DNA of 64,000 bases, from contig CAVSUY010000022.1 in NCBI GenBank assembly GCA_963731035.1, forward strand, positions 4,887 through 68,886. Direction: 5' to 3'. This document shows positions 99 through 16,561 of the stretch, in pieces (the stretch's first letter is position 1; the number at the start of each line of letters is the position of its first letter). The position numbers were made by a program, and so were the translations under genes. The notes under the pieces are model-generated. The model searched no databases, was not told where the DNA came from, and worked only from the letters and a program-made list of their open reading frames with translations. This DNA is from an uncultured Gammaproteobacteria bacterium. Its GTDB lineage: Bacteria; Pseudomonadota; Gammaproteobacteria; Arenicellales; JAANXG01.

Positions 99-161
99 GC
101 TCAAGCGCCTGTGTGGAGCGTGCCCACTGCACCGTCTGTCCCGCCGCCCAGGAAAGAGATT

Positions 162-181
162 CGGTATCCTGTCCCCGGAAC
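162..181. repeat. REP family 1 unit (cggtatcctgtccccggaac)
   Basis: Same ~20-mer as at 5564-5583 and 5662-5681, and as the units flanking the RAYT gene at 46.1-46.9 kb. Sits just 3' of the 185-661 stop codon. Confidence 0.7.
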
Positions 182-184
182 TCG

Positions 185-661: not shown

Positions 662-760
662 AGGGCAGCGTCACCTCCGGTGCTATGCCATAGTGATTGC
701 AGTCTCCGTAAAGTACCAGCATTCTGGTCCGAATCAAAAAAACAGCAAGAAAACAAGGAC

Positions 761-848
761 AGACCACGGTTCCGTCCACGACTACGTCGGTGTATGCGCT
801 CAATCTGGCGGTAAGCATCGAATATTAGCAACAAATGCTCTCTGACCC
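761..848 (-). repeat. junction module A (28-nt core at 821-848 plus ~60-nt arm shared with module C)
   Basis: Minus-strand core GGGTCAGAGAGCATTTGTTGCTAATATT starts ~20 nt after the K+ channel stop. The arm aligns with 4683-4742. Confidence 0.8.
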
Positions 849-866
849 TGTTTTTCTACTGTTTTT

Positions 867-2576
867 CTAAGCCGAATCATGCGGCAACACTGGATACACT
901 TCGAAATAGCTTGCAAGCGCCTGTTCACTGCCGCAGACGTAGAGGACGTCGCCTTCGGCGATGGTGAAGTCCTCTTCAAACTCCACGAACACCGCGGTGC
1001 CGCGCCCAACGGCGACAATCTGGCATCCGGTCTTTTCGCGCACGCCCGCCCGCCACGGATGGTTGCCTACAAGTCGATCGGCATCCGCGCTCACGACCCT
1101 GAGGCTCGGCTCGACACTGACGTAATCCTCACCCAGCAGATGGTATACGAGCAATCGCCCGGACACCTGCCCGACGGAAAGGGCAAAGTCGACGCCCAGG
1201 CGATGCAGCCGTTCTACACTCTGGTCGAGATTGACACGCGCATACAAAGGCACGTCGGGCGCGTAGTCGCGGAGTATGGCCGCGGCAAAAAGAGATTCGC
1301 TGTCATTGCCGATGGTAAGAATGACGGCACGGGCATTGCGAATGTCGGCGGTCTTCAGCGTCTGCTGGCGTAGCAGATTGCCCACGATGTCGACACCGTC
1401 TTCCGCCCTGTCATTGACGACAAGAACCTCTTCGCCGGCGTCGCGCAGCAATTCCGCAACCTTGGCGCCGACTTCGCCGTAACCCGCCACGACGAGAGGC
1501 CCATCGAGAGGCGTTGCCGTGGCAAGTTCGCCAAGTCGCGCGAGCGCGGGGTGGCTGCCAATGGCAATGAGAATAGAACGGGCATACAAACGCGTGTCGC
1601 CGTTCGGCTGATCGATGAGCTTCCCGTCGTTCCACAGACCAATCACCGTCGCGCCCATCGTTTCACGAATTCCGACTTCTTCCAGCGTGCGCCCCGCCAG
1701 ACGACTGTCGGCAGTGACGCGAAGCTGCGCCACCGCGATGTTGGCGCCGATTTGCTGCACGCCGCTGACACTGGGGTTTATCCGCTGGCTGGCGCGGGCG
1801 GCGAGTGCCGCAGCCAGTACATGCCGCGGCGTGAACACGACGTTCGCCCCAGCTTGAGTCATGGCGTGGCGGTGCAGCGGGTCCTCCGCGAGCGCAACCA
1901 CCTGCCCTTCGAAACCAACTTCGCGGGCGGCCATGGTCAGAATCGCGTTTTCGTCGTCGCTGCCATTGGCCACCAGCGCCTGGGCACCTGTGAGTTGACC
2001 GGCCTGGAAGCGATCTTCATTCAAGTCCATGAGTATTACTTTGTGACCGCGTTCCAACAAGCGCCGCGCCACGGGTTCTTCGGACTCGACGATCAGGTAC
2101 GGCCTATGGAAACTCCGCAGTTCTGCCACCAAGGAGGCAACCGGTGGCCCGTATTGGAATATCAGGATCTCCCCCTCGAGATGCGGCAAGGCCCGCGGCA
2201 CCCGGGCCTCGAACCGTTCCTCGAAGAAGGGCAGGACGTAAACAGGGAGGATCATGAAGATCAGGAACAGACCCGCGAACTGGACGAGGATGACGAACAG
2301 CACCATGCGCGGGTCCTGCCAATGCGCATCCTGGCCGTAACCGGTCGTGGTCAGGGTCTCCGCCGCCCATTCGAGACTTTCCCAGATGGTGCGGGCATGT
2401 CCCTCGAGATGGGCCATGCCCTCCATGTAGACAAAAGCGAATACCACGAGCGACAGCGGTACCATGGCGAGCAGCAATAACAACCGTTGTGTCGGACGAC
2501 GCATCGCACGGCCCCACGCCGGAATTGTTGGAATTGGGGTAAGTCTACCACCAAGCCGTGCAGCGCCCGGTGGCAC
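867..2576 (-). CDS. K+ channel with tandem RCK/TrkA-N domains
   Basis: Selectivity filter TTTGYGQ. GYGEVG Rossmann motif and TrkA-C-like tail. True start may be the internal Met at 2504 (MRRPTQRLLLLL). Confidence 0.85.
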   Translation of the reverse strand: MPPGAARLGGRLTPIPTIPAWGRAMRRPTQRLLLLLAMVPLSLVVFAFVYMEGMAHLEGHARTIWESLEWAAETLTTTGYGQDAHWQDPRMVLFVILVQFAGLFLIFMILPVYVLPFFEERFEARVPRALPHLEGEILIFQYGPPVASLVAELRSFHRPYLIVESEEPVARRLLERGHKVILMDLNEDRFQAGQLTGAQALVANGSDDENAILTMAAREVGFEGQVVALAEDPLHRHAMTQAGANVVFTPRHVLAAALAARASQRINPSVSGVQQIGANIAVAQLRVTADSRLAGRTLEEVGIRETMGATVIGLWNDGKLIDQPNGDTRLYARSILIAIGSHPALARLGELATATPLDGPLVVAGYGEVGAKVAELLRDAGEEVLVVNDRAEDGVDIVGNLLRQQTLKTADIRNARAVILTIGNDSESLFAAAILRDYAPDVPLYARVNLDQSVERLHRLGVDFALSVGQVSGRLLVYHLLGEDYVSVEPSLRVVSADADRLVGNHPWRAGVREKTGCQIVAVGRGTAVFVEFEEDFTIAEGDVLYVCGSEQALASYFEVYPVLPHDSA

Positions 2577-2750
2577 TTGCCGGGAGAGGATACGGGGAAC
2601 TCTCCGCCAGTAATTGTCACGACGCCGCTCGCTATCCCGAGCAAGCGATCCGGGGCCACCCTCGGCGATTTCGAGCCACCCGACTTTACGCAGGGATGCA
2701 CGAGGGGAAAATGGGAATGGACCTTCTTTGACTGCGGATCTTGTTCTCGA

Positions 2751-2778
2751 ATATCAGGAACAAATGCTCTCTGACCCG
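2751..2778 (-). repeat. junction core B
   Basis: Plus strand aatatcaggaacaaatgctctctgaccc. Lies in the divergent gap between the K+ channel and the JmjC-like gene. Confidence 0.8.
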
Positions 2779-2838
2779 GTTTTCACAAAATAACTTGGAA
2801 CACGGCTAAAATCGCCGCTGAAGACTGGTGGAATATCT

Positions 2839-4131
2839 ATGACCAAACAAAATCTGAAATTCCTGGACCAGCTGTTTCCCGAGTCTGGCGGAGAGGCGTT
2901 TATCAATGATTGGTGGCTCAAGAGATATACTCTCCAGCACGGTGAAGTGTCGCGCTTGCCATCTTGTTTGCAAGCTCCGGACGGAGCAGTTGCCGGTATA
3001 CATTGCCTTGAAAACTGGCGCAAAGGCGACCTTTTTGATGTCGCCGTGGTTGACGACATCGACTATACCCAATACACGGTTCGCGACTTGCCTCCGATGG
3101 CGTTATATCGAGTTGGCGCACCTGTAATGCTAAGTAACCCTCATTATCGCAACAATGAACTTGCCGATTGGGTGACCGGAGTCAGCAGTGAACTCGGTAT
3201 CGCCAACGAATTTGTGACAGTTAATGCCTGGTTCGCGCGAAAGTCCTACGGACTAGGCATGCACTACGACCCAGGTGAAGTCATCCTGATTCAACTGGTT
3301 GGCAACAAACGAATGCAAATTTGTACTAATCAATTCACGACGATGCCGGATACACAATATGAGCTCTGCAAGCCCTGCGAGCAGAGCGAGTTGCCGCTCT
3401 TTGCCAATGGGTTTCCAGAGGGTGAACTGGAAGGCACGGAGGAAATAGAGCTGTACCCCGGGTCCGTACTGGCCATGCCGCGCGGCACTTGGCATAACTC
3501 TCTGGCGATGGATTCAGAATCGATTGCCCTCGCTCTGTTCTTTCGCACGCCGACAGTCGTAAGCCTTGTAATTTCATACTTGCGGGAATTCTTACGGCAG
3601 GATCCACTCTGGCGTACGCCCTTGTTCGGCCTCAAACTGGAAGGTGACAACAGTAAAGATATCCAAGGAGCAATGGACACTATATCAACCAGTTTGCAAA
3701 CTCTTGACAAGTATATCCATGCCATTCACCCGGAGCAGGTGATCGCTCATGCAGAACCGGTGATCAGCCGTATTCATCGACTGAAACAGGCGCCCTATTC
3801 GCTTCAGCGGCTACCTGAAGCCAGTTTATCGATCAAGGCAACGAACAGCGACGCCTGTCAGATAGTCATCCACGCTCGACTGAACATGCAACAGACCAAA
3901 ACCAGCGAGATGGAACTGGATAGCAGCGTAGTCGGAGCACTGGAATGGATATCCGAACATCCAGCGCGATTTACAATAAAGGAAATTGCTTCAGCGTGCC
4001 CGGAATTACCTTTGGATCATATCGAAGGTTTGATTGACGTACTTCTGGAAACAAACTATTTGGCACTTCTGCCTTTCCCATCAATCCAACCCAATGACGG
4101 TTTCTCGAGTTCAGTTGGGGAGCAAAACTGA
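2839..4131 (+). CDS. JmjC/cupin-4-like putative 2OG-Fe(II) oxygenase
   Basis: 430-aa ORF with lower GC than background. HxD...H pattern (GMHYDPGEVILIQLVGNKR ... PRGTWHNS). Confidence 0.7.
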   Translation: MTKQNLKFLDQLFPESGGEAFINDWWLKRYTLQHGEVSRLPSCLQAPDGAVAGIHCLENWRKGDLFDVAVVDDIDYTQYTVRDLPPMALYRVGAPVMLSNPHYRNNELADWVTGVSSELGIANEFVTVNAWFARKSYGLGMHYDPGEVILIQLVGNKRMQICTNQFTTMPDTQYELCKPCEQSELPLFANGFPEGELEGTEEIELYPGSVLAMPRGTWHNSLAMDSESIALALFFRTPTVVSLVISYLREFLRQDPLWRTPLFGLKLEGDNSKDIQGAMDTISTSLQTLDKYIHAIHPEQVIAHAEPVISRIHRLKQAPYSLQRLPEASLSIKATNSDACQIVIHARLNMQQTKTSEMELDSSVVGALEWISEHPARFTIKEIASACPELPLDHIEGLIDVLLETNYLALLPFPSIQPNDGFSSSVGEQN

Positions 4132-4596
4132 ATCAATTCCCGATTGATCCCATTCCTCAAGACTTGCCATTTTCAATCCCAATAAGTCATACCGAACCAT
4201 GAGATAGCCGTCGGCTCTCCTTCTCAAGGCATAAGGGTGGCTGCAAATCAAGTCCTGCGCCATCAACCCTACGTGAGTTTTCTTCGTCGGATCGTTCTTA
4301 TATTGGAATCGATACAGCTGAATTCCATTTTCCGTAACGGATAAAGCCTCAATTTCAGTCTTCAGTCGGATGTCACTCGCGTTTCCGGCATTTCCGGCAT
4401 TCCCCGCGTTTCCAGCATTCCCGGCGTTTCCAGTCGAGTCAGAACTCTCGCTGGTTTGAGCATGGGCCGGGAGAATGACAGAGTCAATAACAGGTTTCTT
4501 CCACCCATTGGTTACTTGAGCAGTTGCCGTCATGACCAATGCACTACTTCCGGCCGTCCGCATCAAACGGCGGCGTTGCAATTGTTTTTTATTCAT
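4111..4596 (-). CDS. secreted protein: RR-containing signal, (GNA)6 linker, peptidase-S74 intramolecular-chaperone domain
   Basis: ATG at 4596 preceded by GGGGGA. Signal region QRRRLMRTAGSSALVMTATA...LPAHA. SDIRLKTEI...VGLMAQDL...MVRYDLL matches the S74 autocleaving chaperone motif. Confidence 0.8.
   Translation of the reverse strand: MNKKQLQRRRLMRTAGSSALVMTATAQVTNGWKKPVIDSVILPAHAQTSESSDSTGNAGNAGNAGNAGNAGNASDIRLKTEIEALSVTENGIQLYRFQYKNDPTKKTHVGLMAQDLICSHPYALRRRADGYLMVRYDLLGLKMASLEEWDQSGIDSVLLPN
4378..4431 (-). repeat. in-frame 9-bp tandem repeat x6 encoding (Gly-Asn-Ala)6
   Basis: Units cgcgtttcc/ggcatttcc/ggcattccc... read directly. Lies inside CDS 4111-4596. Confidence 0.9.
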
Positions 4597-4682
4597 CGCT
4601 ATATCCCCCACAATCTCAGTTTCTGGAACTGACGTTATAGAAGGTATGGCACCGCTGGTCAACCTTGGTAAAAAAACAGGTA

Positions 4683-4780
4683 CTGACCACGGTCCGTCCA
4701 CGACTACGCCAGTGTATGCGCTCATACTGGCGGTCAGCATCCAATATCAGAAACGATATGCTCTCTGACCCGGTTTCTGA
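4683..4780 (-). repeat. junction module C (core 4743-4771; 8-bp stem 4747-4754/4773-4780)
   Basis: Aligns with module A over ~90 nt. TCAGAAAC ... GTTTCTGA brackets the conserved tgctctctgaccc loop. Confidence 0.8.
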
Positions 4781-4820
4781 GCAGAAAGTGGATCTGTTCC
4801 CTCTCTCGCACGAATTGTGG

Positions 4821-5451
4821 TCAGGCATTCAGCCCCCATACGGTATCGAGAACTGTTCGCAGCGCCCTGGTACCGGACGAGGAAAAAAGCCACCCGAGGA
4901 TCCCGCAATTGATAACAACCGTCCCCCAGAACACGATCTGAAACGACCGCTTCCTGGACTTGTGACGAAGCAGCCTTTGCGCCGCCAACGCACCCGGCCA
5001 ACCGCCCACCAGGGCGAACAGGTGCAAGGTGCTCTCCTGGGTCCGCCAGCGATCATTCCTGGCGGCGGACTTGTCGAGCGCATAGGCGACAAATGCCACG
5101 ACGCTGGCGGTGCAGTACAGCCCAAGGACGGCAATCGGCAATTTGCCCGGCGAATACCGCCCCCGCCACGAATACCAGGAACCCGCCGGCCAGCACGAGC
5201 GGGATGCCACTGCGGCCGGATGATGCGTCCGACGGCAATCTCTCGCCAGCGAAAGCAACGCGCTCGGCCTGTGCCCGTCCCTTGGCGTCGGTCCGGAGCT
5301 CGTAGGTCACGACCTCGTCGCCGGCGGGTCTTCGCTGGCGGTTTGCAAACGACTTGATGTGAACGAAGACCTGCTGCCCACCGCCGTTGGGGGCGATGAA
5401 GCCAAAGCCCCTGTCGTCCTTCCAGCTTGTCATTCTGCCCTTGTGTCGCAT
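4821..5451 (-). pseudogene. cold-shock domain + DUF1294 membrane protein, frameshifted near 5145
   Basis: N-terminal frame reads MRHKGRMTSWKDDRGFGFI...VAGAVFAG. C-terminal frame reads KLPIAVLGLYC...DKSAARNDRWRTQESTLH. Span is 631 nt (3n+1), consistent with a 1-nt insertion at gggCaaa. Confidence 0.8.
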
Positions 5452-5563
5452 ACTCGCTCCTCCCGAAGGCTCTGGACGGACGCCGCGCCCGGCCTGACCT
5501 GATCCCAAGCTAAGGCCGACTAACCGAGTCTGCTACCGCAACCACAGGTTGCAACCTGGTGTT

Positions 5564-5604
5564 CGGTATACTGTCCCCGGAACACGAGACCGGGGACAGT
5601 ATAT
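5564..5604. repeat. REPIN (inverted doublet of REP family 1)
   Basis: cggTATACTGTCCCCGGaacacgagaCCGGGGACAGTATAt. A 14-nt perfect palindrome, caggttgcaacctg, lies at 5544-5557. Confidence 0.8.
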
Positions 5605-5661
5605 TGAGTTCCTTCTGCGGCAGCAGGACGGTTTGCAAGAAGCAAGTCGTCCCGACCAATC

Positions 5662-5681
5662 CGGTATACTGTCCCCAGAAC
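5662..5681. repeat. REP family 1 unit
   Basis: cggtatactgtccccagaac. Confidence 0.7.
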
Positions 5682-5685
5682 TACT

Positions 5686-5800
5686 CTTCCTCGCGCCGTG
5701 CTGCCGCCATCAGCCGCTTGCATCAATTGCTCTCCGAGGAGTCCTATGGCGCATGTCGTCGCTCGGAATCAAATATAAGGAACAAATGGTCCTCCGGGCC
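5686..5800 (-). repeat. junction module D (degenerate core plus leader and first ~13 codons shared with module F)
   Basis: Aligns with 9731-9844. Encodes M(M)QAADGGSTARG versus MRATDGSSTARG, then diverges into REP sequence. Confidence 0.75.
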
Positions 5801-5982
5801 ACGGAACAGTGATAGCCGCCTCGCCGCTCAACTCTGGCGGGGTGAAGATGTAGCAATCTTCCAAGTGGTTGGAAGGGCCAGGACTACTCCTTTCAACAGC
5901 TTGCGACGGCTTCGCCGAGTCATGCGAGTTGCTCCATCCTGCGTACTCATCTGGTTTCATCTGACGCCCGGCCTGATCTCTG

Positions 5983-6022
5983 AATATTGGGAACAAATGC
6001 TCTCTGACCCGGCTTTTGTTCC
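5983..6022 (-). repeat. junction core E with perfect 8-bp stem
   Basis: GGAACAAA (5990-5997) and TTTGTTCC (6015-6022) bracket the loop tgctctctgacccggct. Starts ~20 nt after the stop of ORF 6033-6254. Confidence 0.8.
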
Positions 6023-6032
6023 GGGAGGAGGG

Positions 6033-6254
6033 TCAATTCGAAGGGCCACAGGCGCCATCTTCGCAACTCCACGGTCCCGTCACGACCTGCCCGCCTCCCG
6101 GGGTAATGGTGCCGTCGGGAATCGAGACGGTGGCGAACAGGTTGTTGCAATCCAGACTGGTCGTGGTGTACGTGAGCGTCTCGCTCGAGCACTCGGTCGA
6201 TATGGTTATGGTATGAGTGTCAAAACCACGTCTCGCCTGAGTGGCGGGAAGCAC
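6033..6254 (-). CDS. small Thr/Cys-rich hypothetical protein (uncertain)
   Basis: 73-aa ORF. Overlaps the end of the nhaA fossil. No recognisable SD or family. Confidence 0.3.
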   Translation of the reverse strand: MLPATQARRGFDTHTITISTECSSETLTYTTTSLDCNNLFATVSIPDGTITPGGGQVVTGPWSCEDGACGPSN

Positions 6255-6904
6255 CAGTACTTAGCCTGGCTACCCACATGATTATGCCAACGAGTATGTA
6301 CGGGCTCTTCGATACATCATCGGCTCTATTGAGCACACCCAACACCGCCCCGCAAAGGACCGCTGCCCCACGCACTGGCAGAGATGATGGCCGTGTAGAA
6401 CAATGCAAGAATCAATATTGCACCAATGTCTTCCATATCGCCAGGGCAGATACTAATCTCTTGAGAGAAGTTTGCACACGACTACCCAACAATGGCAATA
6501 TACCTAACGCGAATGCGATATCCGTGGCAGCGGGAATTGCCCAACCCTGTGCGTCAGCGCATCACCGACGTTGATGACACGTAGATCCCCGCCGGGACAA
6601 GCATCCCCCCAAGAGCATCGATCCCTGGATGAATAATATTCTTTACGTCAGATAGCTCACCTGCTATGTGTTCCCGCTTCTACTCCAGACTGACACGGTC
6701 GAAAAAGACCGCCATGACGCGATCGTTAATCCAAAGCACCAGAGGCTTCGCGATTTCATCAGTCCCGATACGCACTTCCACGGCAGTCGACAGAAGCTGG
6801 CGATAATACGTGTCGAGGCGGGAATTGGCAGCGACCAGCGCCACTAGGGCGGCGAAGATCAGGATGATTCCGCCGGCGGACTCTTTCTTCAGGAATTCCG
6901 ACAT
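6220..6904 (-). pseudogene. nhaA: Na+/H+ antiporter NhaA fossil (N-terminal ~230 codons, stops and frameshifts, 3' truncated)
   Basis: MSEFLKKESAGGIILIFAALVALVAANS...LWINDRVMAVFF matches the NhaA N-terminus. Later frames give [13 protein letters not shown] and SPYILVGIIMWVA, interrupted by stops. Confidence 0.8.
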
Positions 6905-7142
6905 TATTTATCGATGTTCGCGCTTGCCGGGAACAGTATATCAACTTCGTCTGCTTCGCGACGGCCGCGATTCCGTATGCGGAACTCAACCCTATCCGCG
7001 CTCGACGCGCACCTTCTCGAGTCAAGAATCGGGTTCATGGTGCCTCCGGTTCTCGGAAAAGGATCCAACGCAAACTCTGCATTGATGTAGTTGGACATGT
7101 TCCTTTGCGCAAGTCCTTGGAAAGTAGACTCTTCAAATAAAA

Positions 7143-7162
7143 TACTGTACATTTGTACAGTA
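7143..7162 (+). promoter_or_regulatory. putative LexA (SOS) box
   Basis: TACTGTACATTTGTACAGTA fits CTGT-N8-ACAG and lies within a perfect 11+11 inverted repeat. Located 19 nt upstream of the HNH gene ATG. Confidence 0.6.
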
Positions 7163-7180
7163 TTCAAAAAGGATCCCACC

Positions 7181-8493
7181 ATGACGCACGCCGCGGCACT
7201 ACCCACCGATCACGAACGCAAACCGCTGCAAACCCTGGCCGACGAAATCACCGAGTTGTCCGCGCATATCGCCGCCGCCACCTATCGCTTCCTGATCCTG
7301 ATCCGCGAGTTCGACGAGCGCGAGGGCTGGGAAGGGCCGGGCCTCAAGTCCTGCGCCCATTGGCTCAACTGGCAATGCGGCATCGGCCTGGGCGCCGCCC
7401 GAGAGAAAGTCCGCGTCGCCCACGCCCTCACGGACCTGCCCCGGATCAGTGACGCGTTTCGCACCGGACGGATCAGCTTCTCCAAGGTCCGCGCCATGAC
7501 GCGCGTGGCGACGCCGGAGAACGAGGAGTATCTGCTCATGATCGCCGAGCACGGCACGGCCGCCCATGTCGAGCGCCTGGTCCGGGGCTACCGGAGCGTC
7601 AAGCGGACCGAGGCGCTGGAGGCGGAGAATCTTCGCCATGACCTGCGGGAGCTGTGCTGGTTCATCGACGACGACGGCAGCTACGTGCTCAAGGCCCGGC
7701 TGACCCCCGAGCAAGGAGCACGAGTCGTGCAGGCCCTGAATGCCGGCGATGGAAGCCCAATCGGATGGCGAGTCCGAGGAGCACAAAAACGTTTCCGCGG
7801 AAACGCCCATCGCCTCACGCCGCGCCGACGCCCTGGAACGCGTCGCCGAAGGATTCCTCGCCGGCGGAGACGCAGGCCAACACCGGCGGCGACCGCTGCA
7901 CCCTCCATATCCATACCGACATCGACACCCTGCGCGCCGACGGCGAAGGCGCGGAAGCCGAGCTGGCCTCAGGCGGACGCGTTTGTGCGGAAACGTCGAG
8001 ACGGCTCGCTTGCGATAGCGGCGTGGTCCGGTGGCTGGAGGCCGCCGACGGCACCACCCTGGACGTGGGCCGCCGCACCCGCAGTATTCCCCCTGCCCTG
8101 CGGCGGGCCCTGGCGCGCCGCGATCAGGGCTGCCGTTTCCCCGGCTGCACCAGCGAGCGCTTTGTCGACGCCCACCACATCCACCACTGGGCCGACGGCG
8201 GCGAAACCCGGCTCGACAACCTCGTGCTCCTATGTCGCCACCACCACCGCCTGGTGCACGAAGGCGGCTATGCGGTCAGGATGGACTCGGGCAGTGAGCC
8301 CATCTTCACCGACCAGGCCGGTGAAACCATCCCCACCGGACCCGATACACGTTTCCGCGGAAACGTCTTCGCGCTCACCACCCGCAATCGCCGAGCCGGG
8401 CTGCGCATCGACCCGCAAACCCCCATTCCCGCCTGGGATGGCGAGCCGATGGACGATTCGATGGCAGTGGAGGGGTTGCTGCACTGGGACTGA
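7181..8493 (+). pseudogene. DUF222 + HNH endonuclease with two frameshifts (near 7742 and 7870)
   Basis: Reading passes through three frames: MTHAAALPTD...QALNA, then AMEAQSDGE...VSAETP...RRADALERVAEGF, then NTGGDRCTLHIHTD...CRFPGC...HHIHHWADGG...LLCRHHHRLVHEGG. Confidence 0.85.
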
Positions 8494-8513
8494 GCTGGCG
8501 GTCCTGCAATTGA

Positions 8514-9233
8514 TCAGGTTTCCTTCATCCGAACATACAGCTGGCCCGCAGCGCTGCCGTCGCCGCTCCTCCGGTTGTCAACTTCCAGATACGCCTGATC
8601 ACGTACCAGGTCGCCAAGCTTCTTGTAACCAAAGTTGCGGGAGTCGAACGACGGATCGTTCTTGTTCACGAGGCTTCCAACCGTCCCAAGGTTTGCCCAC
8701 CCATCTTCCTGAGCAGTGGAGGAAATCGCCGAGGTAAGCAGCTCCCGCAGCTTGCTTTCGTCCGCCTTCCCGGGTTTGGTCTTCTTCTCCGACTCTCCGA
8801 GAATTTCGGTGAAGATGAACTTGTCGCACGCCGCCACGAAGGGTTTAGGAGTCTTCTTCTCCCCAAAGCCATAGACAGCCAGCCCGGCCTCGCGCATGCG
8901 TGTTGCAAGGCGAGTGAAATCGCTGTCGGACGAGACCAGACAGACCCCATCTATCTTCCCCCCATGGAGAAGATCCATGGCGTCGATGATCAGCGCCGAG
9001 TCCGTGGCATTCTTTCCGGTCGTGTACCGGAATTGCTGAATCGGTTGGACGGCATGAACATGCAGCACATCCTTCCAGCCATTCAGATTCGGCGTCGTCC
9101 AATCGCCGTACGCTCGTTTCACCGTCGCCGTTCCATACCTGGCGACTTCCCCGAGTATCTCCCCTATTGCCGATGCTTGCGCATTATCCGCGTCAAACAG
9201 TACGGCCAGGTTTGAGGTTTCTGAAGCACTCAT
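8514..9233 (-). CDS. NYN (LabA-like) nuclease domain + OST-HTH/LOTUS domain protein
   Basis: NLAVLFDADN...YGDW...LVSSDSDFTRLATRMREAG is NYN-like. C-terminal GWANLGTVGSLV...FGYKKLGDLV is LOTUS-like. Start taken at MSASETS. Confidence 0.85.
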   Translation of the reverse strand: MSASETSNLAVLFDADNAQASAIGEILGEVARYGTATVKRAYGDWTTPNLNGWKDVLHVHAVQPIQQFRYTTGKNATDSALIIDAMDLLHGGKIDGVCLVSSDSDFTRLATRMREAGLAVYGFGEKKTPKPFVAACDKFIFTEILGESEKKTKPGKADESKLRELLTSAISSTAQEDGWANLGTVGSLVNKNDPSFDSRNFGYKKLGDLVRDQAYLEVDNRRSGDGSAAGQLYVRMKET

Positions 9234-9323
9234 ACGAACGACCTCATGCCGATGGCTTTGATAGCCAGGTGCCTGTTCCTGCGACGGAACATCGTTCTGA
9301 TCCCATTTCCCCGCTGGCAATCT

Positions 9324-9768
9324 TTATTCATTGTGGGTCCCTATCCAAGGGATTGACGGATCTACGCCCAGAAAGGTCTTCGTTTCCGTGAGGCTCTGCT
9401 CTATGAGTCGACGAGATTCCTCGGATGCTTGCGTACCTGGGGAAACAGCCTCTGGAATATTCGCCTTCGCTTCCACCAGCAGTACCCGCCCGTCAGCAGT
9501 GCGACCAAGCGCATCCCACTGCGGCCCGCGATTCGGCCATCGCCAGCGCTCGATTCGGCAAAGTGATGCCAACCCGATCCAGGAAATCCTGATCTCCGTA
9601 CTCCGCATAATCATCCTCGACCAGGGGCGAGACCCATTCGATTTCGCTTGGTCCGAGTCGGCAGGCAGCGGATATCTCTCCGTTCAAGGTGTCCGGATGG
9701 TCGTTCACCGCCGCACGAATCCACCTGAGACTTCCTCTCGCTGTGCTGCTGCCATCAGTGGCTCGCAT
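9324..9768 (-). pseudogene. PD-(D/E)xK-like protein, frameshifted near 9540
   Basis: Frame 1 reads MRATDGSSTARG...DRVGITLPNRALA. Frame 2 reads WPNRGPQWDALGRTADGRVLLVEAKANIPE. Span is 445 nt (3n+1). Confidence 0.65.
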
Positions 9769-9844
9769 CGATCGCTCTCCGAGCAGCCCTATGACGCATG
9801 TCGTCGCTCAGAATCAAATATTAGGAACAAATGCTCTCTGACCC
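9731..9844 (-). repeat. junction module F (core 9817-9844 plus leader and first codons of the 9324-9768 gene)
   Basis: Aligns with module D. Core on the plus strand is aatattaggaacaaatgctctctgacccc. Confidence 0.8.
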
Positions 9845-10018
9845 CGTCCTTCTCTGGGCTTTTCGTTTTCAGCCATCTTGTGACTCCTGAAACGCCTAAA
9901 ACGCCTAGGTTCAGCGGCGTTTGAGGCGACGGCCGCTTTTGCGGTGGCAAAAATGGGCGGCGGCCCAAACGTCCGCTGCAACGATTTGTTGGGCGTCAGA
10001 TCCGCAGGGCTTAGGTTT

Positions 10019-11329
10019 TCATCTGAGTCGCGACGCTGATGGTCGGACTGAACAATCGATAACGCGGGTGGCGATTACATGCGCGGAGTTGTCCGGGTTT
10101 TTGGCCAACGTCTCGATGAATTCGCGTGTTCTTTCTAAGTCGTTTGATTTCGGTTCTGAAAAGTAGCGTCCCGCTTCATCCTTGAACCACATCAGGATGA
10201 AGATACCGTGCGAACATGGGATTGAGTCCATGTAGCGCGGGAGCTGGCGGGTGACTCCCGCTTTCACCTCTTTGTGGTGGGCCAGCTTAAATTCCGCCGC
10301 AACTGACACGAGTTCGGATTTGGTGTTTGTCGTGGAAAAGCGAAAGTCCAACGAGCCAGAGCCCTCGTAACTCTCCCTTATGACGTGAACACCAAATGGT
10401 TCCAAAGCCATTTGCAGAAAAACATGCAGAGTTGGCTGTATTTCTGTCTCGTTCTTGGGAATTCTCGGTATGTCTAGCTTTTCGCCGTCAACATCAATCG
10501 TCCGGGAGCCATCCCAGAAGGGTTCGACCAATCTACGTGTTTCAAAATGATGAACCAACACCTTGTCGATCGCGGATGTCACCAATGACTGCAACTCTGG
10601 TTCATTAGATGGAGGCGAAGAATGCTGAGCTTTGAGAGCTGCGAGGGCAACGGTAACGCTGTCACGGGCATCGCCTAGGTAGTATTCCTCCGTGGCGTTC
10701 TTGAAAGCGGCTGGTGTCGTAACCAAGCTGACAGTCCGGGCTAGAAGACGTTGCTCGGATTTAAGGCCGTGAGTTGTAACTAGAGCTGTGACCTCATCAG
10801 CCGATATGGGTCTGCCATTGTTGAGTCTAAGTTCCTTAATCGCTCGATTTGTTGCGGAAAGGGCGACAAGCTTTTCCGGCATTGGATCAGGGCCCAGGAT
10901 ATCCATACGCTCACGATCCTCATCAGTGATAGGCGTATCGGGTGCACGTATGGTGTCGCCATCAACGCGCACGGGAAAGCACGCCTCCACCGCGACGCAA
11001 GGGTAATGACCCCGGTTATCCAACAAATGGCGCGTCGGTACGAACGCCCTTCCTTTCTCGTCAGCAGCTAGAACGAGATCCTTCGAAGCTTGATATATGG
11101 GATCCTCGTCCTCGCTTCTTACAAGTAGGAAACGAATTCTCGCGTCACCTAGTCGAGTTTGTACCTGGCAGGTGCCCGGTTCAAAGCCTTCCGGAGTGAA
11201 AGGGGCCACAAACCATACGCACGACCCGATACTTGCAGGTTCAGCAGCAGCTACTTCGTCACGAGAGCCCTGAGTGAGATGCATCGACTGAATGTCGAAG
11301 GGAATATCAAAGCGGGACCGTGCCGACAT
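10019..11329 (-). CDS. hypothetical protein with C-terminal PD-(D/E)xK nuclease-like motifs
   Basis: 436-aa ORF with lower GC. Motif series ETEIQPTL ... GSLDF ... AAEFKL ... QLPRYM (E, D, ExK, QxxxY). N-terminal region unassigned. Confidence 0.75.
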   Translation of the reverse strand: MSARSRFDIPFDIQSMHLTQGSRDEVAAAEPASIGSCVWFVAPFTPEGFEPGTCQVQTRLGDARIRFLLVRSEDEDPIYQASKDLVLAADEKGRAFVPTRHLLDNRGHYPCVAVEACFPVRVDGDTIRAPDTPITDEDRERMDILGPDPMPEKLVALSATNRAIKELRLNNGRPISADEVTALVTTHGLKSEQRLLARTVSLVTTPAAFKNATEEYYLGDARDSVTVALAALKAQHSSPPSNEPELQSLVTSAIDKVLVHHFETRRLVEPFWDGSRTIDVDGEKLDIPRIPKNETEIQPTLHVFLQMALEPFGVHVIRESYEGSGSLDFRFSTTNTKSELVSVAAEFKLAHHKEVKAGVTRQLPRYMDSIPCSHGIFILMWFKDEAGRYFSEPKSNDLERTREFIETLAKNPDNSAHVIATRVIDCSVRPSASRLR

Positions 11330-11435
11330 CGCTACGCGCTCACTTCATTGACTCGGGGTCGGGCCGACGTCCAAGGATACCGATGAGTCACGCTTGAGGG
11401 CGACCGAGCGGAGCGGCAGCGAAGGGAGCGAGCGG

Positions 11436-11795
11436 TCAAGCGTCGGACTCCATCGCCCTTGTTGGGTTTCCACTGCTTCTTTCATCAAAGAGCGCCTGGA
11501 TCTCTGAAAAGGCAGACAATGCATTAATTGATCGCCGAAGAAATCTCTCCGCCTCTTCGTAATTCTGTGTCCGTATCTTATCGGAGGCTTCGCGCAGATT
11601 GTCCCTAACCGTATTAGCCCAAATAGCGTACCTACTAAAAGTGGCTCCACCCTCATCAGCCTGATTCAGGGCTGCACGGGCTAAACGAGGAAAGAGCGGA
11701 TCCACGCCGCCATCCGGAAATACTGTCGACACAACGATCTCTTCATCCGTGTCGTGTCGATCTAGGATTTCTTGTATTTGATTCTCTACATCCAT
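11436..11795 (-). CDS. hypothetical 119-aa protein upstream of the nuclease-like gene
   Basis: ATG-started ORF, same strand and lower GC. No family recognised. Confidence 0.55.
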   Translation of the reverse strand: MDVENQIQEILDRHDTDEEIVVSTVFPDGGVDPLFPRLARAALNQADEGGATFSRYAIWANTVRDNLREASDKIRTQNYEEAERFLRRSINALSAFSEIQALFDERSSGNPTRAMESDA

Positions 11796-11970
11796 AGCTC
11801 TCAGGAGACCCAGCAGTGAATTGGGCAGAGTTCGTAGATCCCGTAATAGGCAGAGTTCCTGACTCGGGTGCTAGCGAGATTCCGAGCGGGTCCGGTCGCG
11901 GCGCGGGTGCTGCGGGTCGTGGTTCGTGATCGAATGGAGAGGTCCTTGCGGTGTCAAGCTGTCCTCTGTG

Positions 11971-13098
11971 TTACGGGGCGATGAAATGTTTGCTGAGCTT
12001 CAGGCCTTGGCTTTGGTAGCTGGATTTCAGGTCCTGGCCGTAGACTTTGTGTGGGGGTTCGGCCAGGGGTTCGTAGATTAGGCGGCCTACTATTTGGCCG
12101 TGTTCTATTACGAAGGGGACTTCGAAGGATCTGACTTCGAGGACGGCTCTGGAGCCTTCGCCGCCGGCGGCGGCGTCGCCGAAGCCGGGGTCGAAGAAGC
12201 CGGCGTAGTGGACTCGGAATTCGCCGACGAGGGTGTCGTAGGCGATCATTTCGGCGGCGTAGTGGGTGGGGACGCGGACGGCTTCCTTGCTGGCGAGGAT
12301 GTAGAACTCGCCGGGGTCGAGGATGAGGCTGGGGCCGTTGCTGCGGTGGATGGGCTCCCAGAAGTCCTCGGCCTGGTAGTGGTTCTTCTTGTCCATGTCG
12401 ATGAGGCCGGCGTGGGACTTGGCGCGGTAGCCGATGAGGCCGGTATGCGGGTCGCCGGCGACGTCGACGGTGATGGGGACGCCGTTCTTGATGTCTTCCT
12501 GGGTCAGCTCGGCGTCGACGATCTTGAGCTCTTCCTGCAGTCGGATGTGCTCGGCGTCGGAGCGGGTGGCGATGCCGCGGCGCACGCGGAGCTGGTTGAG
12601 GCGCGAGCCGGCGCGGACCAGCACGCTGAAGGTGCGCGGGGCGATCTCGGCGTACAGGGGGCCGGCGTAGCCGGGCTTGACCTGGTCGAACTCGACGCCA
12701 TGGTCGGTGATGAGCCGGGTGAAGACGTCGAGGCGGCCGGTGGAGCTTTTCGGGTTGCCGATGGCGCTGTGGTCCGGGGGCAGGTTGACCGATTCCATGA
12801 GGGGCACGATGTAGACGCAGTCGCGCTCCAGCACGGCGCCGTTGGTGAGGTCGAACTCGTGCATGGTGAGGGCCTTGATCCGGTCCTGCACGGTGTTGTG
12901 CTTGCCCGGGAGGAAGCTGGCGCGGACGCGGTAGGCTTTGTGGCCGAGGCGCAGGTCCAGGCTGGCGGGTTGGATCTGGTCGTCGGCGATGGGGTCGGTG
13001 GCTTTGAGGGCGCCGGTGTGGATCAGGGCGACGATGGATTGGGACGGGAGGACGCCTTTGGGTTGGGGGTCCATTTTGGGGGCTGGGTGGTCCGTCAT
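11971..13098 (-). CDS. dcd: 2'-deoxycytidine 5'-triphosphate deaminase (long DCD family)
   Basis: 375 aa. IQPASLDLRLG... and the overall length match the long proteobacterial dCTP deaminase family. Several Arg/Pro-rich shadow ORFs overlap it. Confidence 0.8.
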   Translation of the reverse strand: MTDHPAPKMDPQPKGVLPSQSIVALIHTGALKATDPIADDQIQPASLDLRLGHKAYRVRASFLPGKHNTVQDRIKALTMHEFDLTNGAVLERDCVYIVPLMESVNLPPDHSAIGNPKSSTGRLDVFTRLITDHGVEFDQVKPGYAGPLYAEIAPRTFSVLVRAGSRLNQLRVRRGIATRSDAEHIRLQEELKIVDAELTQEDIKNGVPITVDVAGDPHTGLIGYRAKSHAGLIDMDKKNHYQAEDFWEPIHRSNGPSLILDPGEFYILASKEAVRVPTHYAAEMIAYDTLVGEFRVHYAGFFDPGFGDAAAGGEGSRAVLEVRSFEVPFVIEHGQIVGRLIYEPLAEPPHKVYGQDLKSSYQSQGLKLSKHFIAP

Positions 13099-13143
13099 TG
13101 GTGGGCGTGGGGTGTGTTGGCTGTGGTGCCTGGGTTTTGAGTT

Positions 13144-13167
13144 GATCGCGACTGAAGTCGCTCCTAC
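13144..13167. repeat. REP family 2 unit (gatcgcgactgaagtcgctcctac)
   Basis: Same GC-rich hairpin unit as at 23.1, 23.9, 27.0 and 40.9 kb. Confidence 0.8.
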
Positions 13168-13182
13168 GGGGGGCTTCGTTCA

Positions 13183-13461
13183 TCAGGCGGCGAGGTCTAT
13201 GAGCTCGTTTCTTATGTGGCCGTGTTTTTGTTTGACCAGATCCAGGACTTCGGGGGAGCCCTCGAGCTCGTAGCTGAGGTTGTGGATGTCGGTGCCCTTA
13301 ATCAGGATGCGCAGGGGATTGTGGCAGTCGGGGATCTGGACGTCGGCGAACTTCTGCTTGACCTGGCGGGCGGCTCTCAGGAGCACTGCTTTTTGGACGC
13401 TGTCGCCTATGAAGCAGGGGTCGAGCTTGCGGCCGGCCAGTTCGTAGTGGATTTCCAGCAT
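13183..13461 (-). CDS. hypothetical 92-aa protein between nrdJb and dcd
   Basis: Start at MLEIHYELAGRK. No family recognised. Confidence 0.5.
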   Translation of the reverse strand: MLEIHYELAGRKLDPCFIGDSVQKAVLLRAARQVKQKFADVQIPDCHNPLRILIKGTDIHNLSYELEGSPEVLDLVKQKHGHIRNELIDLAA

Positions 13462-13614
13462 TGGCGTTTCAGTTCTGTGTTGGTTGGTATCGCATAGAGA
13501 TAAAAATGCTCCCTCCCCCATGCGTCGAGGGAGGGAGTACTGCTAGGTCCATCCTTGGACGAGGAGGAACGGGGTTCCCCTGCCAATCTTTCTTGGGCAA
13601 TTCTGTCGGTTCCG

Positions 13615-14391
13615 TCAGCCGCACTTGGATTCGCCGCAGTTGAGGCAGGTGAGGCAGCCGTCGAGTTGGACCATGGCCTTGGTGTGGCACTTGGTGCACA
13701 GGGTGGCGCCGCTGGGGAACTCGGCGTCGCCCTCCTCGTCGTCGGCCTCTTCCTCGGCCTCTTTTAGGGCCTTTTTGTGGGCTTCTCCCCGGGCGCCCGT
13801 GGCCCGCTCGTACTTGGTGCGGGCTTCCTCGACGTGCGTCTGCTGGTTCTCGTCCAGGCTCGGCTTTTCGAGGAGGCCGATGCTGATCAAGTGCTGCTCG
13901 ATGACGGTGCCGAGCTCGGCCACCAGGGACGGCATGTAGCGGCCGCCTTTCTTGAAGTAGCCGCCGCGCGGGTCGAAGACCGAGTGCAGCTCTTCCACCA
14001 GGAAGGTGACGTCGCCGCCCTTGCGGAATACCGCCGACATGATGCGCGTGAGGGCGACGATCCACTGGAAGTGGTCCATGTTCTTGGAGTTGATGAAGAC
14101 CTCGAAGGGACGGCGCAGCTCGTGCTCGGTGCCCTCGTTGAGGACGATGTCGTTGATGGTGACGTACATCGCGTGCTCGGACTGCGGGGTCTTGATCTTG
14201 TAGGTGGAGCCGCGCAGCACCGGCGGGCGCGCCACCTGCTCGTGCATCTGCACGACTTCGGCACGCTCGGGGTCGCGCTTGGGCTCGGCGGCCGGTTTGG
14301 GCGCAGCCTCGGGCTCCGCCTGCCGGGCTTCCGGGGGTTCGTTCTGCAGGACTTTGTAGTCCACGATGGGTTTTTCGATTTTGATGGCCAT
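13615..14391 (-). CDS. nrdJb: class II (B12-dependent) ribonucleotide reductase, small C-terminal polypeptide
   Basis: TSCPD-like region (YVTINDIVLNEG...PFEVFINSKN) and a C-terminal Cys cluster CTKCH...CLTCLNCGESKCG. Sits 16 nt downstream of nrdJa. Confidence 0.85.
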   Translation of the reverse strand: MAIKIEKPIVDYKVLQNEPPEARQAEPEAAPKPAAEPKRDPERAEVVQMHEQVARPPVLRGSTYKIKTPQSEHAMYVTINDIVLNEGTEHELRRPFEVFINSKNMDHFQWIVALTRIMSAVFRKGGDVTFLVEELHSVFDPRGGYFKKGGRYMPSLVAELGTVIEQHLISIGLLEKPSLDENQQTHVEEARTKYERATGARGEAHKKALKEAEEEADDEEGDAEFPSGATLCTKCHTKAMVQLDGCLTCLNCGESKCG

Positions 14392-14407
14392 GTCTTGTCT
14401 CTAAACT

Positions 14408-16561
14408 TTAAAACTTGCCGTAGTAGCCTTCTTTCAAGGCTTCGAACAGGTTGGCAGCGGTGTGGGTCTCGCCGTCGTACTCGATTTCCTCGTTGCCGCG
14501 GGCGCTGACCGTGGTGCCGTCCTTGAGGGTGAACTCGTAGACGGTGTTCTCGAGGTCCTTGTCCTTGACCAGCACGCCCTGGAACGCTTCCGGGTTGAAT
14601 CGGAAGGTGGTGCAGCCTTTGAGGCCGCTTTCGTAGGCGTACAGGTAGATATCCTTGAAGTCCTCGAAGGGATAGTCGGTCGGCACGTTGGCGGTCTTGG
14701 AGATCGACGAGTCGATCCACTTCTGGGCCGCGGCCTGGATGTCCACGTGCTGCTTGGGGCTGATGTCGTCGGCGGTGATGAAATAGTCCGGCAGGCGCTT
14801 GTCCGGGTCGTCCGAGAACGGCTCGGCCTTGCCGTTGATGTGATGCTTGTAGGCCAGCATCTCCATGGAGTGAACGGTCACCTTCTCCTTGGATTTGCGG
14901 CCCTCGCGGATGACGTTGCGCGAGTACTGGTGCGCGAAGCTCGGCTCGATGCCGTTGCTGGCGTTGTTGGCCAGCGACAGCGAGATGGTGCCGGTGGGCG
15001 CGATGGAGCTGTGGTGGGTGAAGCGTGCGCCGGCCTCGGCGATCTCGCTCACCAGGTCCGGATCGGCCTCGGCGAGCTGGCGCATGTAGCGGCTGTACTT
15101 CGCGATCAGCACCCTGCCCTTCACGGTGTCGCCGGCCTGGTAGCCGTCGCTCTCCAGTTCCGGGCGCTTGCGCAGCATCTCCGCGGTGATGGTGAAGTCA
15201 TCGTCCATGATGGGCGCCGGTCCTTTTTCCCGGGCCAGGGCGACCCCCTCACGCCAGCCCGCGAGGGCCATCTCGCGGGTCACGCGCTCGGTGAACTCGA
15301 GCGAATCGGATTCACCGTACTTCATGCGCAGCATGGTGAGGGTCGAGCCCAGGCCGAGATAACCCATGCCGTGCCGGCGCTTGTACTCGATCTCGTGGCG
15401 TTGCTGCCCGAGCGGCAAGCCGTTGATCTCGACCACGTTGTCCAGCATCCGGGTAAACACGCTGACGACGTCTCGGAATTCATCCCAGTCGAAGCGCGCA
15501 TCGTCCGTAAACGGATCGCGCACGAACTTGGTGAGGTTTACCGAACCCAGAAGGCATGAGCCATACTCCGGAAGAGGCTGCTCTCCGCAGGGATTGGTCG
15601 CACGGATGTTCTCGCAGAACCAGTTGTTGTTCATCTCGTTGACGCGGTCGATCAGGACGAAGCCCGGCTCGGCGTAGTCGTAGGTCGACGCCATGATCAT
15701 GTCCCACAGGCGGCGGGCCTTGATGGGCTTGTAGACCCGGCACGCCACCAGTCCCTCGTCGTTGCTCACGTAGCCGCGCCTGGTGGGCCACTCTCGCCAA
15801 ACGATGTCCTCGGCCTGCATGGCCTCGGGGTTATCCCGCAATTCCTTCTCGTCGACCGGGAAGATCAGCTTCCACATGCGGTCGTGCTTGACCGCCTCCA
15901 TGAAGTCGCGGCTGATCAGCAGCGACAGATTGAACTGGCGCAGGCGGCCGTTCTCGCGCTTGGCGCGCACGAAGTCCTTCACGTCCGGATGGGCAACGTC
16001 GAAGGTGGCCATCTGCGCGCCGCGCCGGCCGCCGGCGGAGGACACGGTGAAGCACATCTTGTCGTAGATATCCATGAACGAAAGCGGGCCGGAGGTGTGG
16101 GCACCGGCGCCGGAGACGTAGGCGCCCCTGGGGCGCAGGGTCGAGAACTCGTAGCCGATGCCGCAGCCGGCCTTGAGCGTCAGTCCTGCCTCGTGGACCC
16201 GCTGCAGGATGCCGTCCATCGAGTCCTGCACCGTGCCGGACACGGTGCAGTTGATGGTGGAGGTGGCGGGCTTGTGGTCCCAGGCGCCGGCGTTGGAAAC
16301 GATGCGGCCGGCCGGGATAGCGCCGCGGCGCAGGGCCCAGGTGAAGCGCTCGTACCAGTGCTCCTTCTTTGTCTCGTCCGACTCCACGTCGGCGAGGGCC
16401 CGGGCGACGCGCTTGTAGGTGCCGTCGAGGTCCTCGTCGATGGGGTGCCCGGACTTGCTCTTCAGGCGATACTTCTTGTCCCAGATGTCCAGCGACGCTT
16501 CCTGGAGGGGAAGATCTTTCTTCGACTCTTTGTCGGCCGCCGGTAACTGTACGCTGCTCAT
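14408..16561 (-). CDS. nrdJa: class II ribonucleotide reductase, large polypeptide
   Basis: 717 aa. SNAGAW...TINCTVS, NPCGEQPLP and APTGTISL are RNR catalytic motifs. Confidence 0.95.
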   Translation of the reverse strand: MSSVQLPAADKESKKDLPLQEASLDIWDKKYRLKSKSGHPIDEDLDGTYKRVARALADVESDETKKEHWYERFTWALRRGAIPAGRIVSNAGAWDHKPATSTINCTVSGTVQDSMDGILQRVHEAGLTLKAGCGIGYEFSTLRPRGAYVSGAGAHTSGPLSFMDIYDKMCFTVSSAGGRRGAQMATFDVAHPDVKDFVRAKRENGRLRQFNLSLLISRDFMEAVKHDRMWKLIFPVDEKELRDNPEAMQAEDIVWREWPTRRGYVSNDEGLVACRVYKPIKARRLWDMIMASTYDYAEPGFVLIDRVNEMNNNWFCENIRATNPCGEQPLPEYGSCLLGSVNLTKFVRDPFTDDARFDWDEFRDVVSVFTRMLDNVVEINGLPLGQQRHEIEYKRRHGMGYLGLGSTLTMLRMKYGESDSLEFTERVTREMALAGWREGVALAREKGPAPIMDDDFTITAEMLRKRPELESDGYQAGDTVKGRVLIAKYSRYMRQLAEADPDLVSEIAEAGARFTHHSSIAPTGTISLSLANNASNGIEPSFAHQYSRNVIREGRKSKEKVTVHSMEMLAYKHHINGKAEPFSDDPDKRLPDYFITADDISPKQHVDIQAAAQKWIDSSISKTANVPTDYPFEDFKDIYLYAYESGLKGCTTFRFNPEAFQGVLVKDKDLENTVYEFTLKDGTTVSARGNEEIEYDGETHTAANLFEALKEGYYGKF

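Follow-up and report, generated by a model that had tools for sequence, protein, structure and literature searches.

Two adjacent genes in a 64,000-nucleotide (nt) stretch of DNA from an uncultured gammaproteobacterium of the order Arenicellales (contig CAVSUY010000022.1; the whole stretch is referred to as the window) are two independent integron cassettes, placed side by side in a decaying cassette array next to the dCTP deaminase gene dcd. One encodes a protein of 119 amino acids (aa). The other encodes a 436-aa protein of DUF8371, already known as an uncharacterized Pfam family, and is best described as a single-gene sensor-nuclease cassette built on that family. Its most likely function appears to be anti-phage defense, which makes it a candidate single-gene system. 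Taken as a whole, the best explanation of the locus is that of two independent cassettes, one of them a DUF8371 sensor-nuclease defense cassette, and we consider it probably correct. A first-pass annotation of the window had instead taken the two genes as a single lower-GC module with a nuclease-like C terminus. The features involved are the following.

10019-11329, minus strand: 436-aa open reading frame (ORF), the DUF8371 gene, with an ATG start in the ORF table
10523-11329, minus strand: DUF8371 residues 1-269, putative sensor or regulatory part, modeled as beta-rich at about 1-125 and helical at about 136-264
10019-10522, minus strand: DUF8371 residues 270-436 plus the stop codon, predicted PD-(D/E)xK nuclease domain (modeled core, conserved motifs, local match to EruA and weak fold matches)
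10448-10450, 10346-10348, 10292-10294 and 10286-10288, minus strand: predicted catalytic codons of E294, D328, E346 and K348, respectively
9894-9994, minus strand: attC-2, site of the DUF8371 cassette, with R'' GCCCAAC at 9988-9994, L'' GTTGCAGC, L' GCTGAAC and an atypical R' GTTTTAGGC at 9894-9902
11436-11795, minus strand: 119-aa ORF, with an ATG start in the ORF table
11369-11467, minus strand: attC-1, site of the 119-aa cassette, ca. 99 nt, with R'' ACCCAAC at 11461-11467 and a degenerate R' CTTGGAC at 11369-11375
11808-11814, minus strand: degenerate R' core GCTGGGT, the 5' boundary of the 119-aa cassette by comparison with two other contigs (L106 and L112)

Both ORFs are real genes and not chance ORFs, because homologues were found for each: 62 for the 436-aa protein (E values from 1e-291 to 5e-41) and 124 for the 119-aa protein (E<=0.01). 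They are found on the same strand, 106 nt apart, at the margin of a stretch of lower guanine-plus-cytosine (GC) content (about 2600-11900, GC 0.561). The GC content is 0.525 in the 436-aa gene and 0.494 in the 119-aa gene, versus 0.654 in the adjoining dcd gene and 0.618 in the whole window. On coordinates, strand, spacing and lower GC, the ORF table and the GC measurement agree with what the first-pass annotation had given.

Each gene shows the two marks by which we recognize a gene cassette, namely, a 3' attC with its boxes and recurrence in other arrays beside other neighbors. attC-1 sits between the two genes and extends into the 3' end of the 119-aa ORF. One contig (L106) shares with the window only the 119-aa gene (95.8% identical) and the attC-1 element of ca. 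95 nt, and there the element is present three times, behind three unrelated small genes of 110, 119 and 236 aa. The aligned copies have an R'' of the form RYYYAAC (ACCCAAC/CCTAAC), an imperfect palindrome and, in one of the L106 copies, the R' GTTGGGT. The hairpin of attC-1 is imperfect and its folding energy is no better than that of shuffled sequence, so the identification of this site rests on its repetition and on the core boxes. The opposite end of the 119-aa cassette could be placed by comparison. In L106 and L112, the cassette starts as G/TTGGGTTTCCTGAGAGCT-ATG and is preceded immediately by a canonical R' (GTTGGGT) that belongs to another attC upstream; the window reads GCTGGGTCTCCTGAGAGCT-ATG at 11814-11796. 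L112 is itself a cassette array, made up of four small same-strand genes with an attC after each (canonical R' GTTAGGC, GTTATGC and GTTGGGT), among them an 86%-identical 119-aa cassette.

attC-2 follows the stop codon of the 436-aa gene directly and reads GCCCAAC-AAATC-GTTGCAGC ... GCTGAAC-CTAGGC-GTTTTAGGC. As single-stranded DNA it folds into a strong hairpin (-31.6 kcal/mol, z = -4.5), with none of 200 shuffles as good. The 33 nt at its 5' end recur with 100% identity behind an 81%-identical DUF8371 homologue in four marine contigs (L002-L005), in which the remaining genomic context differs from that of the window and the DUF8371 coding sequence itself has diverged. Behind a 64%-identical homologue in a Burkholderiales metagenome-assembled genome (L007), 19 of 20 nt still match. 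Direct reading of the flanks revealed canonical attCs on both sides of the DUF8371 gene in this genome and in Rugamonas brunnea (L006/L109), and upstream of it in L002, Neptuniibacter (L014) and L023. The Rugamonas gene occupies the second cassette position next to an integron integrase (intI) with an internal truncation. All attC calls were made by direct inspection. A home-made finder based on regular expressions and complementarity gave 37 hits versus 24 in shuffled sequence and was dropped as neither sensitive nor specific, and in a MAFFT alignment of nine attCs, the variable center was too poor for a covariance model. The “cassette junction repeats” of the first-pass annotation turned out to be two different things: the attC-like sites at 11369-11467 and 9894-9994 are real components of the array, and a 28-nt repeat is unrelated to them.

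The reading of both genes as one two-gene defense operon, in which a small regulator or antitoxin might be paired with a nuclease effector, draws on their common strand, the short distance and their similarly low GC. The arrangement is also kept in a sister contig (L104, 94-98% identical), and one member of the 119-aa family (P0169) is fused to an XRE-type helix-turn-helix (HTH), a hint of a regulator- or antitoxin-like role. However, no co-occurrence of the two genes was found beyond the lineage of the window itself. Counting as informative only loci with at least 500 nt upstream (DUF8371) or at least 700 nt downstream (119-aa family), the 119-aa family gene was found at 0 of 27 DUF8371 loci, and the DUF8371 gene at 0 of 51 loci of the 119-aa family. 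Close homologues of either gene have other neighbors. Downstream of the 119-aa cassette there are three kinds: DUF8371 in the window and L104; a 236-aa gene, followed by a Druantia type I system, in L106; and a GDSL-type hydrolase behind an 86%-identical copy in L113. Clustering of the flanking ORFs found no neighbor of the 119-aa family in more than 6 of 81 loci. Contigs of equal size (11152 and 2464 nt) among the matches of both families had suggested co-occurrence, and look-ups showed this to be a coincidence. The sole conserved case, L104, belongs to the same lineage, in which the linkage would simply be inherited. Since the genes do not co-occur elsewhere, the test that the first-pass annotation itself had proposed, and since an attC separates them, the two-gene module is refuted, and we regard an operon as highly improbable. 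In low-GC cassette arrays, same-strand neighbors call first for a search for attC sites, and only co-occurrence elsewhere would justify taking them for an operon.

The assignment to DUF8371 (PF28130) comes from the precomputed Pfam label of the protein collection, carried by a 100%-identical protein (P0001) and by all of the ca. 60 full-length homologues. Members of the family are ca. 420 to 440 aa long, with conserved motifs as in the window protein. The AlphaFold2 (AF2) model, obtained from a 34-sequence alignment (predicted local distance difference test score [pLDDT], 83.7; predicted template modeling score [pTM], 0.71), places in the nuclease domain a core of helix 294-312, strands 315-318, 329-334 and 340-349, helix 355-369 and strand 374-381, i.e., in the order alpha-beta-beta-beta-alpha-beta. 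The motifs that had been singled out by the first-pass annotation are all present in the translation, and they provide E294 (TEIQPTL), D328 (GSLDF), E346 and K348 (AAEFKL) and Q362 and Y366 (QLPRYM). In a hidden Markov model alignment of about 195 sequences, sampled from clusters formed at 50% identity, conservation is near complete: E294, 194/194; E319, 193/195; D328, 195/195; E346, 196/196; K348, 196/197; Q362, 196/196; and Y366, 194/195. The PD-(D/E)xK C terminus proposed by the first-pass annotation is therefore backed by the modeled core and by catalytic residues that are near-invariant in diverged relatives, and no profile assigned the protein to a housekeeping function. Judging from the model, the C terminus is a restriction-like PD-(D/E)xK nuclease domain with an intact predicted active site, and the protein presumably cleaves DNA. 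The only NCBIfam match was local, between residues 235-427 and positions 1138-1318 of the 1318-position EruA model (NF058535; E=6.5e-7, 27.9 bits). A Foldseek search of viral models returned a 118-residue viral protein (probability, 1.00; template modeling [TM] score, 0.65), followed by a “restriction endonuclease” and Mrr, with a best E value of 2.3e-3. The N-terminal region was found to be as unassignable as the first-pass annotation had stated, with no relative in Pfam, NCBIfam, PADLOC, PDB sequences or PDB folds, and its family-conserved residues are P98, D104, Y109, P110 and F118. A hot-dog fold suggested for it by full-length Foldseek against the PDB (TM about 0.1) was rejected as meaningless, and the PDB sequence matches obtained with the single protein and the profile (Schlafen, E=0.34; fHbp, E=1.1) are noise.

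With a cut-off of E<=1e-3, an exhaustive profile search recovered 1,213 proteins, each representing a 50%-identity cluster, from both bacteria and archaea; no relative of either DUF8371 or the 119-aa family was found in the viral contigs of IMG/VR. Besides proteins of ca. 430 aa like that of the window, there are proteins of ca. 650 to 830 aa, with an unassigned N-terminal extension of about 250 to 440 aa before the whole DUF8371 region, and others of ca. 325 aa, in which a different N terminus of ca. 140 aa precedes the nuclease. In Methanosarcina and its relatives, the helical-plus-nuclease module is fused to the C terminus of a reverse transcriptase (RT). The RT of one of them (P0216) passes the cut-off of the NCBIfam retron St85 family (257.7 versus 235 bits), and its best PADLOC models are RT_III-A and RT_XIII. 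These archaeal RT-DUF8371 fusions are single genes (loci L016-L018, L110 and L111; proteins P0060, P0061 and P0216), and a Pfam scan of the 34 aligned homologues returned a single domain, RVT_1, which was confined to the fusions. Some relatives match the C terminus of EruA down to E=2.5e-16, and some also match that of HyoA (NF058534). The nuclease is attached to several different N-terminal parts and is therefore a portable effector module. A broader proposal would be that standalone DUF8371 is a widespread, unrecognized single-gene anti-phage or anti-plasmid system, its nuclease a portable effector on at least four scaffolds (novel beta-rich N-terminal sensor, helical extension of ca. 280 aa, NACHT and retron-type RT) and integron cassettes one of its main vehicles. 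We find this plausible, stopping just short of calling it probable.

Where the family is found outside cassettes, its surroundings are conflict-related. In L015, the DUF8371 gene has a type IIG restriction-modification enzyme on one side and GajA/GajB on the other, and in L008, it adjoins a PDC-S37/Hhe helicase-nuclease of 1568 aa. In L011 (7839-11302), its start overlaps the stop codon of a DUF4062-TPR gene (717 aa, with a PDC-S60-like N terminus), and in L020 (7241-10588), a UvrD/GajB-like helicase (774 aa) is found 45 nt upstream of a short 325-aa homologue; these two pairs are possibly genuine two-gene systems built on DUF8371. Other genes are associated with mobile elements: directly behind an inovirus G2P replication-initiator gene in L009 (8697-11107), at the edge of a Pf-like prophage with Zot, coat B and integrase in Pseudomonas sp. 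YH-1 (L107, 1-9299) and within an element with an integrase and a primase-polymerase in L021. The two unrelated DUF8371 genes at inovirus prophage edges may be accessory prophage cargo for superinfection exclusion. A DUF3800 gene follows the DUF8371 gene in L114 and L115. Barstar-family genes are also found in the vicinity, as the next cassette in Rugamonas (L109, 9389-9664) and, with a 128-aa partner, near the Pseudomonas genes (L107, 11805-12475; L108, 4536-5206), where they are probably coincidental cassette or island cargo. What remains of the candidate defense system of the first-pass annotation is its single-gene form, to which these family-wide associations (C termini of NACHT proteins named as antiphage, retron-type RTs and Gabija, restriction-modification and Hhe neighbors) lend associative support; its two-gene form does not hold. 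Under the single-gene reading, the N-terminal region (residues 1-269) would keep the nuclease silent or target it, acting as a sensor or autoinhibitor, until a cue from an invading phage or plasmid, or some DNA feature, releases or directs the nuclease. The nuclease would then cut either the foreign DNA or that of the cell itself, the latter amounting to abortive infection.

Among the known systems, EruA and HyoA, which are NACHT antiphage proteins according to NCBIfam, resemble the window protein in their C-terminal nuclease domain. However, it lacks the NACHT NTPase and the repeat sensor, and its N-terminal 230 residues are unrelated. Only the C-terminal ca. 190 residues match EruA, and the local score compares with a family cut-off of 1000 bits, so the window protein is not a member. 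A literature search found no experimental basis for either name. Retrons with fused effectors (in PADLOC, RT-Toprim I-C, RT-protease XI and RT-TIR XII) are similar in that the DUF8371 module is fused to an RT in relatives, although the window protein has no RT domain and the fusions are present only in distant relatives, so that it does not belong there either. The RT-DUF8371 fusion is not included among the fused retron types of PADLOC, and an Rfam scan of positions 1-16000 of the window gave no match and no noncoding RNA nearby. Shedu (SduA, DUF4263) has a like design, in that one gene encodes a variable N-terminal part followed by a PD-(D/E)xK nuclease at the C terminus; the window protein gave no SduA/DUF4263 match at E<=1 in PADLOC or Pfam and is not a Shedu. 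There was likewise no PADLOC or Pfam match at E<=1 to Cap4 of CBASS, whose nuclease is fused to a SAVED sensor and accompanied by a CD-NTase gene, nor a cyclase among the neighboring ORFs examined, which sets it apart from that system too. The Shedu/Cap4-type comparison made by the first-pass annotation is thus reduced to a resemblance in design. Shedu has been reported among the commonest defense systems in integron cassettes, and such cassettes have been described as banks of small, often single-gene, nuclease-fusion defense systems (bioRxiv 10.1101/2024.07.02.601686). Epona, Divona and Damona, from the chromosomal integron of Vibrio cholerae, are defense cassettes of this single-gene nuclease-fusion kind with phage phenotypes (Darracq et al., bioRxiv 10.1101/2024.07.02.601686). 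They have in common with the window protein, as regards design, that a single cassette-encoded protein joins a restriction-like (Mrr/RecB-type) nuclease to another domain.

Several observations weigh against the favored explanation. Scans of the 436-aa protein with PADLOC 2.0, and with a Pfam model set without PF28130, gave no match. The best-probability local matches of Foldseek against the PDB were CinB, PaqCI and NucS/EndoMS, with a best E value of 0.03, and because the E values of the fold matches are weak, the fold call rests on motifs and topology. The sensing step is purely inferred, since the N-terminal region has no assignable fold. In the literature, the search found no paper on DUF8371, EruA or HyoA and no experiment on a standalone DUF8371 protein. 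The closest neighbors in the window (NYN-LOTUS, a frameshifted HNH gene and a pseudogenized NhaA) are not established defense genes, and what the first-pass annotation had seen as a defense-island-like context is, rather than a demonstrated defense island, a low-GC island that holds a decaying cassette array. Guilt by association is, moreover, a weak argument for integron arrays, whose cargo is functionally very diverse. No IntI-like sequence was detected by tblastn in the window, where dcd occupies the place expected for intI, and the attC core sites are mutated at both attC-1 and attC-2, for which reasons we describe the array as decaying and integrase-less. This integrase-less attC cluster is presumably a CALIN in the terminology of Cury et al. 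(2016). A sigma-70-like promoter for the DUF8371 gene was also not found in the window. Given this, the lack of an integrase/Pc promoter context and the decaying neighbors, the cassette may be silent here.

Other functions for the nuclease have to be considered. An N-terminal reader combined with a C-terminal Mrr-like PD-(D/E)xK domain, without a methyltransferase partner, is the architecture of type IV (modification-dependent) restriction endonucleases such as Mrr, MspJI and SauUSI. The DUF8371 protein fits it, with a beta-rich domain that would read modified bases and an Mrr-like domain that would cut; the best viral fold matches are Mrr and restriction-endonuclease domains, and the gene is single in most loci. 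Such restriction, a form of defense without abortive infection, is the main specific rival within the defense reading, although we judge it rather unlikely, as no Mrr_cat, SRA, EVE, YTH or other reader domain matched in Pfam at E<=1 and the same nuclease module serves NACHT and RT scaffolds as an effector, and those are triggered effectors and not DNA readers. Somewhat less likely still is a selfish or toxic nuclease, of the addiction type or as an interbacterial toxin, that would owe its presence in the array to cassette stabilization or competition. In its favor, toxin-antitoxin and toxin-immunity cassettes abound in integron arrays, DUF8371 has Barstar cassettes beside it or close by in L109 and L107/L108, and there is a VasX-like toxin nearby in L014, but no conserved immunity or antitoxin partner and no secretion or delivery domain was detected, and the domain is common to antiphage-annotated NACHT proteins and retron-type RTs. 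A housekeeping nuclease of DNA repair or recombination, similar to NucS/EndoMS or RecB, seems very improbable. Weak fold matches to NucS/EndoMS and MUS81 are what suggests it; the distribution of the family is patchy and mobile (cassettes, prophage edges and islands), its GC in the window is low relative to the host, and there are no repair-gene neighbors and no profile assignment to any repair family.

Should the single-gene defense reading hold, with the DUF8371 cassette giving protection from phages or plasmids, the defense catalogue would gain a sensor-nuclease family of compact size (1.3 kb), and a function would be found for a Pfam DUF that comprises more than a thousand sequence clusters. 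It would also support the view of chromosomal integron arrays, even decayed ones without an integrase, as stores of small immune genes. In addition, having one nuclease module in NACHT, retron-RT and standalone form would offer a clean case in which to study the rewiring of an effector to different sensors.

The 119-aa gene is a helical-bundle protein in an independent cassette. Its AF2 model (pLDDT 90.6) has five helices and no match among PDB folds (all E>3), and the protein has no Pfam domain and no assignment in NCBIfam or PADLOC. The family is characterized by the conserved motifs RAALNQ, SRYAIWANTVRDN and SAFSEIQ and by the invariant residues R40, A41, Q45, R55, Y56, I58, W59, A95, F96 and Q100. 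One of its loci (L086) has a divergent IntI homologue upstream. Longer members (P0169, P0147, P0114 and P0158) reach 182 to 198 aa; the HTH of P0169 is N-terminal (PF01381/PF13560) and P0147 carries PF26468. Such extra domains hint that the helical domain may regulate or bind a partner.

The surroundings of the two cassettes include the following genes.

7091-8493, plus strand: DUF222/HNH gene, frameshifted, from profiles; intact (444 aa) in L104
8514-9320, minus strand: NYN plus OST-HTH/LOTUS protein, from domain profiles
11971-13098, minus strand: two-domain dCTP deaminase (dcd), housekeeping nucleotide metabolism, at host GC
13615-14391, minus strand: 258-aa ORF, between the dCTP deaminase and the ribonucleotide reductase ORF
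14408-16561, minus strand: class II-like ribonucleotide reductase ORF, at host GC

Housekeeping genes of nucleotide metabolism (11971-16561) are thus found directly past the cassette array. On the other side, the profiles agreed with the first-pass annotation on the NYN-LOTUS and HNH neighbors, while the “broken PD-ExK gene” at 9324-9768 had no match in Pfam, NCBIfam or PADLOC and that label is unverified. The comparison of window 6218-8493 with positions 3460-6984 of the sister contig L104 illustrates the decay: the NhaA Na+/H+ antiporter, intact (394 aa) in L104, is present in the window as fragments (e.g., 6680-6904) with ca. 1 kb missing. The decay of HNH and NhaA could be real pseudogenization or an assembly error.

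The 28-nt repeat, GGGTCAGAGAGCATTTGTTCCTAATATT, is intergenic and found on the minus strand at 821-848, 2750-2777, 4758-4779 (degenerate), 5983-6010 and 9817-9844, i.e., four copies with at most one mismatch (0 expected by chance) and a degenerate one. The copies have a single orientation, are confined to the low-GC first 10 kb and separate gene units of 1.2 to 3.8 kb. The repeat does not resemble an attC, matched nothing in Rfam and recurs in L104. A direct repeat of 106 nt (87% identity; 5686-5791 and 9731-9836) duplicates the upstream region and first codons of a small broken ORF at 9493-9768 (MRATDGSSTARG... versus MQAADGGSTARG...). Short repeats of TTCGGTATACTGTCCCCGGAAC, direct and inverted (families D8 and I6), occur at 160-184, 5562-5586, 5590-5614 and 5660-5684, and two of these copies form a near-perfect palindrome around 5562-5614. 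Finally, the Druantia type I system of L106 (2321-10987; DruA, 626 bits; DruE, 667 bits; CoiA_N and DEAD genes in between) is located directly downstream of the three attC-bounded small cassettes that include the 119-aa gene, so that there a multigene defense system abuts a cassette array.

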